Source: an uncultured Prevotellamassilia sp. (GTDB lineage Bacteria; Bacteroidota; Bacteroidia; Bacteroidales; Bacteroidaceae). From it: a DNA stretch of 64,000 nt. Location: positions 5,072 through 69,071 of the forward strand of contig CAKQOG010000011.1 in the NCBI GenBank assembly GCA_934255485.1, in the 5' to 3' direction. The notes under the pieces are model-generated. The model was not told the DNA's origin. It worked only from the letters and a program-made list of their open reading frames with translations, and ran no database searches. The translations under genes were made by a program, and so were the position numbers. How positions within the stretch are numbered: position 1 is the first letter of the stretch; each line of letters begins with the position of its first letter. This document shows positions 6,912-13,457 of the stretch, in pieces.

Positions 6912-7475
6912 TTACCATAATTCGTTAAATGGGATGAATACAACACTACAAACAGCACATAAAATGGCTATCACAAACCACAATAACCGTGTAAGAATGA
7001 GCAGAATAATAGAGTATTTTATCCAACGGCTGGCAGAGTTAGAAGCCAACTCAGCATCGTCGTATTGGCGTAAACGATAAAAGGTCTTTACCCTATCGGC
7101 CTTATAAATGGCCATTATTCCAGCCAACGTACCAAGGAGGGAACATCCTAAAACAAAGCTCAGTACGGTTACAATGATAGCTCCCACCATGTGGGTATCG
7201 GGACAGCCTGCTGGTAATGAATTGCGAAAAGAATTTCTGAGAGATTCGTAATCTCTTTTTAAATCATCCGATGCAAAAGGATTGGGTGGTTCGGGAGGCG
7301 TATTGGAGTTGTCAAACATAGATTTCAGTTCGACAACATCTTTTGCGCGTTGCCAATCTGACATGCCCGTACACCACACAAGAGTATTGGGTTTCACACC
7401 ATTTTCTATCAATTTATAGGATGGTACAGGTCCTTGTTGTTTGCCATTGGCATCGAGGTAGAAGTAGTTATTCAT
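6912..7475 (-). CDS. DUF4339 (GYF-like) N-terminal domain protein with C-terminal two-TM CD225/dispanin-like region
   Basis: N-terminus YFYLDANGKQQGPVPSYKLIENGVKPNTLVWCTGMSDWQRAKDV (GYF_2 pattern), Pro-rich linker, then two hydrophobic helices separated by a basic loop. Confidence 0.4.
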   Translation of the reverse strand: MNNYFYLDANGKQQGPVPSYKLIENGVKPNTLVWCTGMSDWQRAKDVVELKSMFDNSNTPPEPPNPFASDDLKRDYESLRNSFRNSLPAGCPDTHMVGAIIVTVLSFVLGCSLLGTLAGIMAIYKADRVKTFYRLRQYDDAELASNSASRWIKYSIILLILTRLLWFVIAILCAVCSVVFIPFNELW

Positions 7476-7515: not shown

Positions 7516-8088
7516 CTATACTTTGTCTAACGCTGTTCGGCTATTGATTTTGCAGTTCTTAAATGCGGTGGGTGTAAGCCCTGTGTATTGTTTAAACTGG
7601 CGCGAAAGATGCGCTACGCTCGAATAGTTGGTTTGCCAAGCAATCTCCTTCATGCTTAGTTCGCCATATTGAATAAGTTCTTTAACATACTCTATGCGCT
7701 GCTGCAAATAAAACTTTTCAATACTTCGGTCTTCAACAGAAGCAAAGGTGCGGCTAAGTGTGGCATAATCGGTATGGAGTTTGTCAGCAAGCACTTGTGT
7801 TATACTTTGTGTTGTGTTTTTTTCGGAACGAACGTATGCAATAATGGTTTGCTTTATTTCCATTATCAGCTTGTCTGTAGGGGCGTCGATAACCTCAAAA
7901 CCTATGGCACTAAGTTCTGTACGCAAGGCTTGCATTTGTTGCATACTAAGCGCCTCAGCAATAGTTACATTACCCAACGACACACTTTGAGGCTCTATGC
8001 CTAATTTTACTAACGTTTGCGTAACCGCCATAATACAACGGGCACACACCATATTCTTAATCTTTAGGTTCGTCATTATCGTTTGCAT
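7516..8088 (-). CDS. AraC-family transcriptional regulator with an N-terminal heavy-metal-associated (HMA, MxCxxC) domain
   Basis: N-terminus NMVCARCIMAVTQTL...GFEVID (HMA fold with MxCxxC). C-terminus SVAHLSRQFKQYTGLTPTAFK (AraC HTH). Its 5' end overlaps the stop of the upstream TOPRIM-like gene, which suggests co-transcription. Confidence 0.7.
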   Translation of the reverse strand: MQTIMTNLKIKNMVCARCIMAVTQTLVKLGIEPQSVSLGNVTIAEALSMQQMQALRTELSAIGFEVIDAPTDKLIMEIKQTIIAYVRSEKNTTQSITQVLADKLHTDYATLSRTFASVEDRSIEKFYLQQRIEYVKELIQYGELSMKEIAWQTNYSSVAHLSRQFKQYTGLTPTAFKNCKINSRTALDKV

Positions 8089-9082
8089 CTTTGAGTTGAG
8101 TGATAAAGCTACTTATGTCGTGTTGAATTTGTTGGTATTGTGGGCAATTGGTGTAAGTGGTGTGCTTGCGCAACATTTCCTCAATGCTTCCCATGGCATT
8201 TTGATAGGCTGATAACTCGTTTTGCATTTGCACATTGTGCTCGGCAAGTCGCCTTATCTCGCGCTCACGCTCGCGCCTTAACAACTCACAAACCTCGCTA
8301 AGCAATGGCACAACTATGCCATCAAACAAGTCGTGACCACGCATGTAAAGATAGGTGGTTTGTGGTGTGATGCCCAACGATAGCAACTCTTCGCGCAAGG
8401 GTTTGTAGGTTTTCTTGCCTTCGGGAAATTGTCTCTGCAATCTGTTTATTTTTGCATTAACCAAGTGCCTAAGATGCTCAAGCGTATGTTCGGGATGATA
8501 AAGATTTATGTTGTTCAACTGAACGATGTGGTAAAAGTCGAGCATTGAGAAATGCTTGTACATGCCATAGCGATAGCACCATATATTCCATACAAATAGA
8601 GGCCAAATAATTTCGGAATATTGCTGCATGAATAGCTCAAAATCAAACAGATGGTGGTCATTAAGTGTGCACATCACACACACCATTTGCAAGGCAGGCG
8701 CATAGCACTGAAAGTTCTCAATGGCATAAACATAGGTGTGGAATACGTATGGATTGCCACAAACCTCTTTCGACGCAGGCGTTGTTCCTTGCATCAAAAA
8801 GTCGTAGTCGGCATCAACACATGCTATCATGCATTGTCCTAAACGACTGCCTAAATCATTGGCAAGTACTATTTTCTTGCCCTTGCATAACGAGGTACGC
8901 GAAGGCAACATCACCTCAAAGAAATAGTGGTCTGTTTCGAGGGGACGTAACAGATTGCTCCAAAAAAACACGTCATCGTAGCTTTCAACATATGCCACAA
9001 TGCGCTGGCGAGCATGGCGTCCGTTAAGACGATTCATCGCACTAATGTACGATGAATTAAGATGGTCGTTCAGCCTTTTCAT
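8057..9082 (-). CDS. TOPRIM-like (DUF4435-type) protein; candidate nuclease partner of the adjacent ATPase
   Basis: YVESYDDVFFW (TOPRIM Glu motif, vEGxxD-like) and CVDADYDFL (DxD motif); remainder alpha-helical and unassigned. The size, 341 aa, is typical of AriB/DUF4435 proteins. Confidence 0.5.
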   Translation of the reverse strand: MKRLNDHLNSSYISAMNRLNGRHARQRIVAYVESYDDVFFWSNLLRPLETDHYFFEVMLPSRTSLCKGKKIVLANDLGSRLGQCMIACVDADYDFLMQGTTPASKEVCGNPYVFHTYVYAIENFQCYAPALQMVCVMCTLNDHHLFDFELFMQQYSEIIWPLFVWNIWCYRYGMYKHFSMLDFYHIVQLNNINLYHPEHTLEHLRHLVNAKINRLQRQFPEGKKTYKPLREELLSLGITPQTTYLYMRGHDLFDGIVVPLLSEVCELLRREREREIRRLAEHNVQMQNELSAYQNAMGSIEEMLRKHTTYTNCPQYQQIQHDISSFITQLKDANDNDEPKD

Positions 9083-9204
9083 AGCTTATTCCCTCCTAAG
9101 AGTAAGTAGTTAAATGTACCCTTTGCTTGTAAGTAGATATTCAAAATAACATGATCATGTTCTACACTCATTGATATGAATTTTGAACACTTACTTATGC
9201 TCAA

Positions 9205-10080
9205 TCATTTCATTGTAATATCTCCAACTTCGGTTACTGCATCTTCCCATCCATCCATGATGAGAGCTGGAGAGTGGGTGGTAAGTATGATTTGTGCATT
9301 GGGATTTAACTCGCGAACCAATGAAATAAGGTTCTTTTGCCATTCGAAATGCAAACTTGCTTCAGGCTCATCCATAAAGAGTACAAAATGCTGTTGGTCC
9401 TCAGTAAGAGCGGTTAGCAAAATGAGCAAAATTTGTTTTTCACCACTTGAGAGTAGATATGGCGAAAGCTTTTCATCGTATTGTACAAAGCTCAGTTCAT
9501 TGCTCTGACGATCGATTTTTTTGCCTGTTTCAGCAAAGAGTTCGTCTACAATATCAAGAAATCTCGTCTTCAAGTTTGCAGCCTTTGTTGCTTTTTCGCG
9601 TGCTTCGGGGTCGCCGCTTGTAAGCATTGCTATCATGCGGTTGCCAACATTAACTTGATAGTCAAGATAGCGCCGCTGAATAAGGTAGAGTTGCCAATCA
9701 AGTTCGGTAACAATGCGTGCATCGTTGAGCGCCCCTACAGGTTCGGAAGCTATAATCTTGCGGTCAAAGCTTCTTATCACATCATAGTGTATGCCTGTGG
9801 CATCGCTTGGAGCAAATTCTATTTTGACACCCAATCTGCCAAAAGGCTGAATATCACCCGACGAAGGTATAGAATGAAGATGCTGAATTAAACGGTTTAA
9901 GATAGTACTTTTGCCAGCTCCATTATGTCCGCTAAGCACATTTACATCTGGATTGAGGTCCCATACTATATGTTTATGCCCACTCCACAGACTTGATATT
10001 TCAATGCGACGTATGTAGTTTGCAAATTTAATCATAATGTATAAAGGTTTTAAGTAGGTTGCTGAATAAATGGCTTTCAC
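9205..10080 (-). CDS. Minimal ABC-type (AAA_15/AAA_21-like) ATPase; candidate AriA/OLD-N-like partner
   Basis: Walker A GHNGAGKST, ABC-signature-like LSSGEKQ, Walker B/D-loop VLFMDEPEASLH, H-loop TTHSP. ~291 aa with no coiled-coil insert; the true start may be MIKFANY at ~10035. Confidence 0.7.
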   Translation of the reverse strand: MKAIYSATYLKPLYIMIKFANYIRRIEISSLWSGHKHIVWDLNPDVNVLSGHNGAGKSTILNRLIQHLHSIPSSGDIQPFGRLGVKIEFAPSDATGIHYDVIRSFDRKIIASEPVGALNDARIVTELDWQLYLIQRRYLDYQVNVGNRMIAMLTSGDPEAREKATKAANLKTRFLDIVDELFAETGKKIDRQSNELSFVQYDEKLSPYLLSSGEKQILLILLTALTEDQQHFVLFMDEPEASLHFEWQKNLISLVRELNPNAQIILTTHSPALIMDGWEDAVTEVGDITMK

Positions 10081-10328
10081 GCATCATTATCCATACAACA
10101 AAGTTAAATACAAATAGTTTACTATGCAATTTTCGTTTCTTCTTTCGTCTATAAAATTGGATAGTTTATCGATTTTTAGTAAAAAAGTAAGACTATGCAT
10201 TAAACAATAAACGTAATTTTGTGTCAGAAAAATAGTGAGTGCACAAAAGTGTTGAAGATAAAAACGTTGGTCTGCAACCTTTTAAAAACACTCAATACGC
10301 AATATGAAATATTAAATTAACTACATAT

Positions 10329-13300
10329 ATGAAACGTATATTTTTGCTTTTCATCCTTTCGTTTGTGCTTGCCGCAGGTGCGATGGCGCAAAAGTTTGTG
10401 GTGACAGGAAGCGCTATTGAATCGAAGTCGAAAAAGCCTGTAGACTTTGCATCGGTTGTGCTGCTACGAGCTGATAGTACAGCAGTTGTAGCTGGTACTA
10501 CAGACGAAGATGGCAAGTTTAAACTAACTGTTGGCGCAGCAGGAAAGTACATTGTTAAGGTGTCTTTTGTTGGCTTTACCCCATTAACTAAGAATGTAGA
10601 ACTAACTGCAGAAAACGACTCTTTGTCGCTTGGTGCGTTGCTGATGACTTCGAGCGAAAAGGTGCTTGGCATAGCAACAGTTACTGCAACCGCATCGCGT
10701 GTAGAGCAAAAAGGTGACACTACAATGTTTAGTGCTGCAGCCTATCGAGTGCCTACTGGTTCAACACTCGAAGCACTTGTTAAACAATTGCCTGGCGTTG
10801 AAGTAAGCGACGATGGCACTATCAAATGGAATGGTAAAACCGTGCAGGAGTTTTTAATTAACGGTAAAGACTTCTTTAAAGGTGATACAAAAACAGCCAT
10901 GAAAAATTTACCCACAGAGTTGGTAAGTAAGATAAAGGCTTATGACAAGAAAAGCGATTACACAGAACAAACAGGTATAGACGATGGAGAAGAAACTACC
11001 GTGTTAGATATATCAACCAAACGCGAACTCAATGAGTCGTGGATTACAAACATAGACTTGGCTTATGGTAATCACGACCGTTATTCAACACGCTTCTTTG
11101 GTACACGCTTTACCGACCGAACACGTGTATCTGCATTTGGCTCAATGAACAATACTAATGACCTAGGTTTTGGCGGTCCACGTGGTTTTGGTGGAGGAGG
11201 CTCGGGCTTAACCGCAAAGAAGAACGTGGGACTTGACTTTTCTTGGGAAAACGGAAAACAAAAGCGTGAGGCAGGTCGTTTGGAATTAGGCGGATTTATG
11301 CTATACAGCCATACGAGCAACGATGCTGTAACAACAAGCAACTCTGAAACTTTCTTAAACTCAGGCAATAATAGCTCGTTCAGCAATAGTAGAAGTATTA
11401 GCGGGTCGCATAGTACGAATGTGATGACACGCTTGCGTTTGGAATGGAATCCGGACTCGATGACAAACGTAAACTTTCAACCTCGTTATAGCTATAGCGA
11501 GTCGAACAACACGGGTAACTCGCTTTCGGCAACATTCAATAGTAACCCATACGACATAGAAAACATGATAAGCCCGCTTGATAGCATCTTTGCAAGTAAT
11601 GCTGCTGCAAGCAACCCCGAACTTTATGCCATGATGGTAAATACCAATAGCCGTTTATCGATGGGCGATAGCAAGTCGCATAATATAAGTGCAAACTTGA
11701 ACCTTGTACGCCGTTTGTCGTCAAATGGACGCAACATATCTTTGCGGGCTTCAGGTGGATATAGCAAGAGTGAAAACCATAACTATAGCATATCTAACAT
11801 AGCATACAATGCTTCGAGCAACAGAAAAGGAAGTTTCTTGAACCAATATTCTACAATGCCAAGCAAGAACTACAATGTTAGTGCACGTGTAGGATATGTT
11901 GAGCCATTAGGCCATAACTGGTTTGCAGAGGCACGTTATCAATATAGCTATAAATACTCACAGGGCGACCGTTCACGCTACAATCTCGACTCATTATACT
12001 ACAAAAAGAGTTTATACCCTGATATAACAGATTTTGATGCAAGTTTTGGCAACGCTGATACTTATCCTGCATTGGGTATGTTGCCAACAACCGACCAAGT
12101 GCTCAACTATGTTCGCGATTTGAACAATTCTCAGTATGCTACATATAAGTACTTTGACCATACGGCTACCATTGGTATCCGCTATAACACTTCTACCATC
12201 AAATTTAATGCTGGTGTAGAATTCAATCCTGAACGCACAAAATTGGCATACAATCGTCCGGGACAAAACATCGATACGCTTATTACACGCAAGGTAACAA
12301 ACATCTCTCCACAAGTGCGTTTGCGCTACAACTTTTCAAAGACCAATCGCCTTGAGATTTCATACCGCGGTTCGTCTTCTCAACCCTCAATGACAGACCT
12401 TATTGCAGTGGTAGACGACTCTAACCCTCTGAGTATATCAATGGGTAATCCTGGATTAAAGCCATCTTGGAATAACAGTCTGCGCTTAAACTATAATGGT
12501 TATAACGTAACCTATCAACGCGGTATAATGGTGGGAGCAGATGCAACGTTTATACGCAATTCTATCTCAAACCGCATGGTATATGACGAGAGCACAGGTG
12601 TGAGATATATGCGCCCCGACAATATCAATGGTAATTGGAATGGTAGAGGTATGTTTATGTTCAATACAGCTCTTGGTGCTCAAAAGCTATTCAACATCAA
12701 CACCTTTACAAGCCTAAGCTACCAAAATGCAGTGGGATACGTAAGCAGCATGCCTAATACTTCGGCCTCAACACGTTCTGCTGACAACTCTCTAATGGAA
12801 ATAGAAGCATCCGCAAAAACTGCTAACAACCATTCATATAACTACTACAACGATATATTTAATAAGGCTACATCGCAGAAAAATACTACACGCACTGTTG
12901 GCGTAGACGAAAATCTTAACCTGTCTTATCGCTCAACATGGTTTGATGTAGGTATATTGGGCAAGTTGGGCTATCAGCACGCACGTGCCACTGTGCAAGA
13001 TAATGCCAACATGGACACATGGAACTTTGCTTATGGTGCTAATGCCAACGTTAATACCAACTTTGGTTTGAGCATTTCTACTGATATTCGCATGAGTTCT
13101 CGTCGTGGTTATTCGGATGCTACAATGAACACCAACGAACTTCTTTGGAACGCACAAATAGCTCAATCATTCTTGAAAAACAAGGCTGCTACTATCAGCA
13201 TTCAGTTCTATGATATTTTAAAGAAGCAAAGCAATGTGAGCCGTATGCTATCGGCAACGCAACGCACAGACTCTTGGAACAATGCCATTAACTCGTATTT

Positions 13301-13457
13301 TATGGTTCACTTTATCTACAAGTTGAACATCTTCCCTGGCGGTAGTAAGGGTGGAAACAAGGATGGCGAACGCCAAGGTCCTCCTGATATGCGTGGTCCT
13401 GGTGGTATGCCTATGCGCCCTATGGGTATGCCAATGGGAGGCGGACACAGAATGTAA
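10329..13457 (+). CDS. TonB-dependent receptor family outer-membrane protein (CarboxypepD_reg N-domain + plug + beta-barrel) with unusual Gly/Pro/Met-rich C-terminal tail
   Basis: Signal peptide; KFVVTGSAIESKSKKPVDFASVVLL...DEDGKFKL (CarboxypepD_reg); plug-like ALVKQLPGVEV...INGKDF; long Asn/Ser/Tyr-rich barrel. The barrel ends ...FIYKLNIF, then a 38-aa tail PGGSKGGNKDGERQGPPDMRGPGGMPMRPMGMPMGGGHRM. Confidence 0.7.
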   Translation: MKRIFLLFILSFVLAAGAMAQKFVVTGSAIESKSKKPVDFASVVLLRADSTAVVAGTTDEDGKFKLTVGAAGKYIVKVSFVGFTPLTKNVELTAENDSLSLGALLMTSSEKVLGIATVTATASRVEQKGDTTMFSAAAYRVPTGSTLEALVKQLPGVEVSDDGTIKWNGKTVQEFLINGKDFFKGDTKTAMKNLPTELVSKIKAYDKKSDYTEQTGIDDGEETTVLDISTKRELNESWITNIDLAYGNHDRYSTRFFGTRFTDRTRVSAFGSMNNTNDLGFGGPRGFGGGGSGLTAKKNVGLDFSWENGKQKREAGRLELGGFMLYSHTSNDAVTTSNSETFLNSGNNSSFSNSRSISGSHSTNVMTRLRLEWNPDSMTNVNFQPRYSYSESNNTGNSLSATFNSNPYDIENMISPLDSIFASNAAASNPELYAMMVNTNSRLSMGDSKSHNISANLNLVRRLSSNGRNISLRASGGYSKSENHNYSISNIAYNASSNRKGSFLNQYSTMPSKNYNVSARVGYVEPLGHNWFAEARYQYSYKYSQGDRSRYNLDSLYYKKSLYPDITDFDASFGNADTYPALGMLPTTDQVLNYVRDLNNSQYATYKYFDHTATIGIRYNTSTIKFNAGVEFNPERTKLAYNRPGQNIDTLITRKVTNISPQVRLRYNFSKTNRLEISYRGSSSQPSMTDLIAVVDDSNPLSISMGNPGLKPSWNNSLRLNYNGYNVTYQRGIMVGADATFIRNSISNRMVYDESTGVRYMRPDNINGNWNGRGMFMFNTALGAQKLFNINTFTSLSYQNAVGYVSSMPNTSASTRSADNSLMEIEASAKTANNHSYNYYNDIFNKATSQKNTTRTVGVDENLNLSYRSTWFDVGILGKLGYQHARATVQDNANMDTWNFAYGANANVNTNFGLSISTDIRMSSRRGYSDATMNTNELLWNAQIAQSFLKNKAATISIQFYDILKKQSNVSRMLSATQRTDSWNNAINSYFMVHFIYKLNIFPGGSKGGNKDGERQGPPDMRGPGGMPMRPMGMPMGGGHRM

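Follow-up and report, generated by a model that had tools for sequence, protein, structure and literature searches.

A compact PARIS-type ATPase and DUF4435 nuclease gene pair resident at one chromosomal site in Prevotellamassilia and its relatives

We analyzed a 64,000-nucleotide stretch of the genome of an uncultured Prevotellamassilia sp. (contig CAKQOG010000011.1, positions 5,072 to 69,071 of the forward strand; hereafter the window, numbered from its first letter), which carries two adjacent genes related to AriA and AriB, the ATPase and nuclease of the PARIS immune system of Escherichia coli. As open reading frames (ORFs), both lie on the minus strand in the same direction, at 9205..10080 (291 amino acids, GTG start) and 8057..9082 (341 amino acids). 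The order of ATPase then TOPRIM protein agrees with an initial annotation made from the DNA letters alone, and the motifs quoted there (GHNGAGKST, LSSGEKQ, FMDEPEASLH, TTHSP, YVESYDD, and CVDADYD) all occur in the translations. The ATPase length of ~291 amino acids given in the same annotation is that of the mechanical ORF call, which runs on to the GTG at 10080; the true protein is most likely 276 amino acids long (9205..10035), because the ATG at 10035 is the start used by gene callers on identical contigs, the orthologs (n = 43) are mostly 274-279 amino acids, and the match to the PADLOC AriA model begins at residue 21 of the 291-amino-acid form. ATPase residue numbers below follow the 276-amino-acid form. 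The two genes are:

9205..10035, minus strand: compact AriA-like ABC ATPase, 276 amino acids (Pfam, PADLOC, profile, and Foldseek matches to AriA)
8057..9082, minus strand: AriB-like DUF4435/TOPRIM nuclease, 341 amino acids (DUF4435 match, AriB models, and fold)

By family and by fold, the pair belongs to PARIS. The ATPase matches the Pfam families AAA_21 (2e-22, 81 bits) and AAA_15 (3e-19, 70.2 bits), with weak matches to ABC_tran and SMC_N, and its partner matches DUF4435 over its full length (1.3e-50, 172.8 bits); these include all three of the families (DUF4435, AAA_21, and AAA_15) that the initial annotation had put forward for checking. The published hidden Markov model (HMM) rule for PARIS calls for an ATPase with AAA_15 of at least 32 bits or AAA_21 of at least 27 bits, adjacent to a DUF4435 protein of at least 27 bits (Rousset 2022, PMC9122126), and it assigns the window genes, which are adjacent, co-directional, and 122 nt apart, to this system. 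In PADLOC, the ATPase scores best on the AriA model PDLC04164 (1.1e-53, 180 bits, positions 4-251 of 253), with all other models at 82 bits or less, while the partner matches AriB models only: PDLC04165 (289 positions, 5.8e-30) and, with the better score, the general DUF4435-derived AriB model PDLC02983 (4.8e-59). The library lists PDLC04164 and PDLC04165 without a description or source. Ten distant short ATPases (32-58% identical) also match PDLC04164 best (138-205 bits, with margins of ~70-130 bits), so that PADLOC-DB v2.0.0 already lists the compact subtype under PARIS. NCBIfam returned nothing above its curated cut-off for either protein.

Comparison with characterized systems leads to the same assignment. 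The E. coli B185 and O42 PARIS loci have the same gene order, ATPase then DUF4435/TOPRIM, and a split ATPase and TOPRIM pair is the arrangement of class 4 of the OLD family (class according to PMC11464382). The window ATPase is, like AriA, a Rad50-like ABC ATPase, for which AriA is the best match by both sequence profile and structure, and AriA and AriB are the closest solved structures to the window pair; the PARIS-like identity proposed at the outset thus held up by HMM rule, PADLOC models, and structure alike. The ATPases of several other defense systems (PtuA of Septu and retrons, GajA of Gabija, AbiL, and MAD3 of MADS) share the same ABC ATPase head superfamily, but they are second-tier matches by sequence and structure, at no more than 82 bits in PADLOC and no more than 59 bits in the profile search against PDB. 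The partner of Septu is the HNH protein PtuB, and Gabija combines a fused TOPRIM domain with the GajB helicase, whereas the window partner is of the AriB type; Septu, Gabija, and AbiL identities were accordingly rejected on scores far under those of AriA and on their different partners.

The ATPase head is complete in its nucleotide-binding motifs, which were assessed from the translation and from a 56-sequence alignment of the ATPase family (A2). These motifs, with two further features of the protein, are as follows:

9904..9930, minus strand: Walker A (P-loop) GHNGAGKST, residues 36-44; G36, G39, K42, S43, and T44 invariant in A2
9718..9759, minus strand: hypervariable, low-confidence loop, residues 93-106; column entropy 1.7-1.8 bits, against ~0.3 in the core
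9526..9705, minus strand: two-helix hairpin, residues 111-170, the sole remnant of the AriA coiled-coil/insertion region (AF2 model and profile alignment)
9433..9453, minus strand: ABC signature LSSGEKQ, residues 195-201; L195, S196, G198, E199, and K200 invariant in A2
9349..9378, minus strand: Walker B and D-loop FMDEPEASLH, residues 220-229; D222 and P224 invariant and E223 and E225 nearly invariant in A2; aligned to the AriA block that holds E393
9268..9282, minus strand: H-loop TTHSP, residues 252-256; T253 and P256 invariant and H254 nearly invariant in A2

Outside the head, most of what distinguishes E. coli AriA is missing. A search of PDB with the 56-sequence family profile recovered the solved AriA (8ux9_B, 1.3e-31, 113 bits) ahead of PtuA, Rad50, and SMC proteins (59 bits or less), and the AriA match falls into two blocks, profile 5-128 against AriA 3-136 and profile 118-278 against AriA 276-440; therefore, AriA residues ~137-275 (about 140 residues of insertions and coiled coil) have no counterpart in the window ATPase, which has 276 residues where AriA has 464. 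An AlphaFold2 (AF2) model of the window ATPase (predicted local distance difference test, pLDDT, 86; predicted template modeling score, pTM, 0.86) has two ABC lobes joined only via a hairpin of two helices (111-139 and 145-170), and its top ten Foldseek matches in PDB are all AriA chains. In AriA, the segment IS1 (122-180) is implicated in trigger recognition, and IS2 (242-289) enlarges the coiled coil and enables hexamer formation (Burman 2024, PMC11464382); the four-helix bundle of the coiled coil forms the hexamer interface, the trigger protein Ocr binds there, and AriB docks at the AriA head-head interface (Deep 2024, PMC10802264). The IS1/IS2 four-helix bundle is so far a known feature of the E. 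coli B185 system alone, and the window ATPase does not have it: most of IS1 and of IS2 is missing, as is part of the coiled coil. Because the Ocr cleft and the hexamer interface are absent, the window assembly is probably not the A6B3 propeller, and any sensing by the compact ATPase must work differently from that of E. coli AriA.

The sequence that remains is a mosaic in which three hypervariable segments (residues 55-69, 93-106, and 140-156, the last at the tip of the hairpin) interrupt a near-invariant core. Two of the three coincide with low-pLDDT loops (pLDDT is below 50 at residues 97-100), and in the profile alignment segment 93-106 sits opposite AriA residues 105-121, which include R116 and R119, the residues whose mutation weakens Ocr binding (PMC11464382). 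On this alignment, loop 93-106 may be equivalent to the R116/R119 trigger loop of AriA, and the overlap with low-confidence loops together with this position makes the three segments the best candidates for ligand sensing.

Conservation of the partner was examined in 44 AriB family members (alignment A1) and in a broader MAFFT alignment (A3), extended to DUF4435 proteins paired with short ATPases in other phyla and to the experimentally validated AriB of E. coli O42, as given in the supplement of PMC9122126. A3 was used in place of a direct hhalign comparison of the shallow AriB profile with O42 AriB, in which only the core from the DxD motif to AIEN aligned, with low probability. Three acidic motifs stand out:

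8972..8992, minus strand: TOPRIM Glu motif YVESYDD (E33, D37) and start of the first helix (FFW..LL); E33 and D37 invariant in A1 and A3
8801..8821, minus strand: TOPRIM DxD motif CVDADYD (D90, D92, D94), lined up by hhalign with VDQDY of O42 AriB; D90 and D92 invariant in A1 and A3
8711..8725, minus strand: third acidic motif AIENF (E122, N123), the same as YAIEN of O42 AriB; invariant in A1 and A3

The window AriB is only ~10% identical to the solved AriB, and its residues E33, D37, D90, D92, and E122 correspond to E26, D30, D88, E90, and E122 of B185 AriB in a mapping made by motif spacing only; the AriB fold, a TOPRIM within DUF4435 with acidic metal-binding residues, is present. Residues F40, W41, L44, and L45 of the first helix are invariant in the 44 members, and a conserved hydrophobic first helix after the catalytic Glu is common to both AriBs; in E. 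coli, AriB docks at the AriA head interface through this helix (PMC10802264). The window AriB also features a conserved basic C-terminal helical extension. With the ATPase motif residues and the AriB acidic residues invariant, both proteins look enzymatically competent.

To place the pair in its genomic setting, we scanned one genome per species for synteny, anchored on the flanking gene for an outer-membrane beta-barrel protein (OMP). Both genes lie directly upstream of the OMP gene in 45 of 63 evaluable loci, distributed by OMP identity to the window as follows:

OMP identity at least 67%: pair present 22, absent 0, undetermined 6
OMP identity 55-67%: pair present 15, absent 9, undetermined 6
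OMP identity below 55%: pair present 8, absent 9, undetermined 5

Among the 45 pairs, the ATPase is intact in 44 and AriB in all 45, and the loci that do not have the pair contain no trace of it by tBLASTn. The sole non-intact copy (L040:1440-2416) is an ATPase split into two overlapping high-scoring segment pairs, either a frameshift pseudogene or an assembly error; three loci (L018, L047, and L050) have ~1.9 kb of extra DNA between the ATPase and OMP genes. Identity of the pair follows that of the OMP (r = 0.91), and in every one of the 45 loci the OMP is less conserved than the ATPase. For ten species with tilS and a radical-SAM-like gene also nearby, mean pairwise identity is 75.9% for the ATPase, 68.3% for AriB, 64.2% for the OMP, 73.3% for the radical-SAM-like protein, and 49.5% for TilS, and the divergence of the ATPase tracks that of the radical-SAM-like gene (Spearman 0.89). 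Of the five genes compared, the ATPase has the lowest ratio of nonsynonymous to synonymous divergence (dN/dS, or omega), at 0.01-0.03; the ratio is 0.03-0.12 for AriB, 0.03-0.08 for the OMP gene, and 0.09-0.14 for tilS, at broadly similar synonymous divergence (dS) in the pair and its neighbors. Both the ATPase and AriB are under strong purifying selection.

Within the species, no strain without the pair was found: all contigs with an exact match to AriB (23/23), to the OMP (22/22), or to the neighboring AraC-type gene (23/23) share one pair-bearing neighborhood. The GC content of the pair is 0.417, against 0.422 +/- 0.022 in 2-kb windows across the 64 kb (42nd percentile), and 2.9 million viral contigs, searched once with a single protein and once with an alignment, yielded no relative. 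The synteny, co-divergence, native GC content, intact copies, and lack of strain-level absence identify the pair as a resident chromosomal module, vertically inherited at one site, and not as an inserted island. Two impressions of the initial annotation, that the locus is AT-richer than its surroundings and that it represents an island, thus did not survive; the refuting case that it named, a pair conserved as core genes at this position in all relatives with a housekeeping annotation such as an SMC/RecF-like repair role, was largely borne out as to position, but neither a housekeeping annotation nor an SMC/RecF identity emerged. PARIS is typically, if not by definition, carried on prophages, satellites, and defense hotspots with a patchy distribution, none of which applies here; unlike the E. 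coli systems, the window pair is not on a P4/P2-type element but is chromosomally fixed, with housekeeping-like evolution.

The immediate surroundings of the pair include the following features:

10329-13457, plus strand: OMP, 1042 amino acids, CarboxypepD_reg and OMP_b-brl_3 domains, with a Gly/Pro/Met-rich low-complexity C-terminal tail
10036..10328, no strand assigned: AT-rich divergent intergenic region between the ATPase and OMP genes (GC 0.34 in the 10001-10500 window)
9083..9204, minus strand: ATPase-AriB spacer, 122 nt, with AGGAGG shortly 5' of the AriB ATG
7516-8088, minus strand: AraC/HTH_18 regulator with an N-terminal MVCARC (heavy-metal-associated-like) motif
6912-7475, minus strand: protein of 187 amino acids with GYF_2 and CD225 (interferon-induced transmembrane protein-like) domains, downstream of the AraC-type gene

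The spacer contains no minus-strand terminator, and its fold is not significant (z = -1.0); the AGGAGG is unusual for Bacteroidota. Spacer length ranges from 15 to 503 nt in related species (L002-L080), and in distant relatives the two genes overlap or lie ~10 nt apart. The divergent intergenic region is presumed to hold the promoters of both the ATPase and OMP genes; no promoter was demonstrated, and Bacteroidota promoters are outside the scope of the sigma-70 scan. The two genes are likewise divergent in 44 of the 45 related loci, where the gap between them is usually ~190-500 nt. No Rfam family reached its gathering threshold anywhere in the 64-kb window.

Ordinary chromosomal genes flank the pair, as the initial annotation had it: the OMP, the AraC-type regulator, the GYF/CD225 protein, an SSF transporter, and PepD. 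Across the related loci, the recurring neighbors are likewise housekeeping genes (rplS, tilS, thymidine kinase, and prephenate dehydrogenase), and no mobile-element or defense gene was found among the recurrent neighbor clusters inspected. The one constant neighbor in the 45 species is the OMP gene, which adjoins the pair even where the pair is inverted (L068). Because the start of the AraC-type gene overlaps the AriB stop codon or lies 4 nt past it, co-transcription of the two is suggested; in 20 of the 45 loci the gene after AriB is AraC-like (37-82% identical to that of the window). A functional link of the pair to the OMP or the AraC-type regulator was considered and found unsupported, as distant relatives have wholly different neighbors and no OMP.

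Beyond this group, short AriA-like ATPases form a large family: 293 clusters (50% clustering) match the window ATPase at E <= 1e-30, and the best 150 of these are mostly 270-350 amino acids long. The pairing of ATPase with DUF4435 is obligate, with a DUF4435 gene directly following the short ATPase in seven of eight other contexts sampled across phyla. Neighbors in these contexts are usually housekeeping genes that differ by lineage, and no conserved functional partner recurs. In two other Bacteroidales lineages (L087-L089 and L082; ATPase 57% and 45% identical by tBLASTn), the pair lies just upstream of oxaloacetate decarboxylase subunit genes, which is a second case of long-term positional conservation at a different chromosomal site. 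The ~340-amino-acid size class is scattered over Gammaproteobacteria, Deltaproteobacteria, Bacteroidota, and Patescibacteria. Methylovulum psychrotolerans is the named source of two distinct short AriA-like ATPases (P0578 and P0586, 320 and 310 amino acids), and the one examined (L094) is surrounded by ORFans close to a Peptidase_S24 repressor, an accessory or prophage-like context that differs from the Prevotellaceae loci. Given the patchy ~340-amino-acid distribution and the Methylovulum setting, the compact family overall behaves like horizontally spread defense, of which the ~275-amino-acid Prevotellaceae branch is now fixed.

We consider it reasonably probable that the locus is a compact PARIS-type (class 4 OLD-family) two-gene immune module that has become fixed and vertically inherited, a reading favored by the AriA/AriB family identity, the intact active sites, the recurrent ATPase-DUF4435 pairing, the patchy wider family, the ORFan-rich Methylovulum region, the sensor-like mosaic of the ATPase, and the fixed inheritance itself. 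In E. coli PARIS, AriB is released and dimerizes in response to an Ocr-type anti-restriction trigger and cleaves host tRNA (tRNA-Lys and others), with abortive infection as the outcome (PMC9122126; PMC11464382; PMC10802264). By analogy, ATP-bound dimers of the ATPase head would sequester monomeric AriB via its conserved hydrophobic first helix until a trigger, most likely a phage protein sensed by candidate segments 55-69, 93-106, and 140-156, perturbs the ATPase and releases AriB; freed AriB would dimerize and carry out metal-dependent cleavage of host tRNA or other RNA, such that translation would halt and the infection would abort.

Several observations weigh against an immune role. The only known trigger binds a region that is missing here, the same one that builds the hexamer, and the E. 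coli mechanism is not transferable wholesale. Housekeeping-grade conservation (75.9% identity and omega of 0.01-0.03 for the ATPase) is atypical for defense genes, as are multi-species synteny, native GC content, and the lack of strain-level absence and of viral copies. There are no other defense or mobile-element genes near the pair, and a Rikenellaceae locus (L085:4054-4923) has a 289-amino-acid ATPase (43% identical) with no DUF4435 gene and no tBLASTn remnant of one; this solo ATPase sits between PNP_UDP_1 and ROK kinase genes. Moreover, the literature search turned up no paper on how a compact AriA is built, what triggers it, or what phenotype it confers.

The same observations lend themselves to a different account, the serious alternative among those considered, which we nonetheless regard as unlikely: that the PARIS-derived pair has been domesticated for a non-antiviral host role, such as tRNA or rRNA cleavage or maturation or a translational brake under stress. 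Co-divergence with the flanks (Spearman 0.89), an ATPase as conserved as the radical-SAM-like gene and with the lowest omega (0.01-0.03) of the five genes at dS broadly like that of the neighbors, presence in 22 of 22 evaluable close species, intact copies (44/45 ATPase, 45/45 AriB), native GC, and the lack of strain-level absence and viral copies all fit such a role, as do the housekeeping neighbors in several other lineages, with the oxaloacetate decarboxylase neighborhood common to two. The trigger-binding coiled-coil cleft is missing, and the catalytic site of AriB resembles that of RNase M5, an rRNA-maturation enzyme (PMC12409363). Loss of the hexamer/Ocr coiled-coil region could then have left a fixed core pair serving RNA cleavage or maturation, or acting as a constitutive innate sensor through its head-proximal loops, a course of events that we hold to be a minor prospect. 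However, 18 of the 41 more distant relatives that could be evaluated lack the pair at this site and retain no remnants of it, so the wider clade can do without it; the distribution of short AriA over unrelated phyla is patchy, and its Methylovulum location looks accessory; a fixed host substrate would account for the hypervariable surface loops less well than an arms race; and no functional partner gene is conserved across lineages.

Decidedly less probable is that the pair persists as a selfish toxin-antitoxin addiction module, with AriB as toxin and the ATPase as antitoxin, in which loss of the ATPase alone kills and the host gains nothing. AriA has indeed been described as an antitoxin that sequesters the toxin AriB (Deep 2024, PMC10802264), the Pfam label of AAA_21 reads "putative AbiEii toxin, Type IV TA system" domain, and an addiction module could also persist at one site without mobile-element genes. 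Deletion of ariA or of ariB in E. coli is non-toxic, however, which excluded a simple toxin-antitoxin system there (Rousset 2022, PMC9122126). Inactivation of AriB would moreover be neutral under addiction, and both genes would decay, yet AriB is intact in 45 of 45 loci with invariant catalytic residues and an omega of 0.03-0.12; at sites without the pair, both genes are cleanly absent. A lack of any PARIS kinship, with an orphan transporter-type or RecF/SMC-like ATPase beside an unrelated gene, would accord with the source annotations, the weak ABC_tran and SMC_N matches, and NCBIfam transporter models at 1e-10 or worse, and the window pair shares with RecF/RecR and Rad50 heads a conceptual likeness only (a Rad50-like ATPase with little or no coiled coil and a TOPRIM partner; Rad50 is among the PDB profile matches of the family). 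This reading is effectively refuted: all NCBIfam matches are far under their cut-offs, the AriA model leads in PADLOC (180 bits, with all others at or below 82), AriA is the best PDB match by profile and structure, and the DUF4435 partner recurs with the ATPase across phyla. An ABC transporter nucleotide-binding domain was rejected on scores such as 41.6 against a cut-off of 254.85 (NCBIfam) and on the absence of a permease or substrate-binding gene from the neighborhood, and a RecF/SMC repair ATPase on a TIGR00611 (RecF) score of 26.2 bits against a cut-off of 172 and on a partner with the DUF4435/AriB fold, not RecR.

The PARIS label itself is not new, as existing pipelines would assign it. 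The idea of an undescribed minimal variant, raised in the initial annotation, is right as to minimal, with ~140 residues gone, and less so as to undescribed, since a 253-position PADLOC AriA profile already exists. Our search of the literature on PARIS in Prevotella or Bacteroides, or on short AriA, found nothing relevant, and the supplements of Rousset 2022 (PMC9122126) do not mention Bacteroidota. Relative to the literature searched, what appears to be new is a compact AriA without the feature central to the known mechanism, and the fixed, core-like evolution of its Prevotellaceae branch. Public annotations of such genes are generic or wrong (EcfA2, "ABC-type transport ATPase," "excinuclease ATPase subunit," or generic AAA ATPase) and are misleading as to their identity.

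Current understanding of PARIS comes from a single E. coli system, whose hexameric AriA propeller detects Ocr, a mimic of DNA, through a cleft in the coiled coil. The compact form, with several hundred clusters at 50% identity from different phyla, retains the ATPase heads and the AriB nuclease but not that cleft; if it still defends, it would need another way of sensing infection and probably a different assembly, and would thereby reveal the minimal signaling core of PARIS. Its behavior in the Prevotellamassilia/Alloprevotella group, with one site, co-divergence with neighbors, and an omega of ~0.02, is unusual for an abortive infection system, and it raises the question of whether some "defense" modules of abundant gut bacteria turn into core genes or are recruited to host RNA metabolism.

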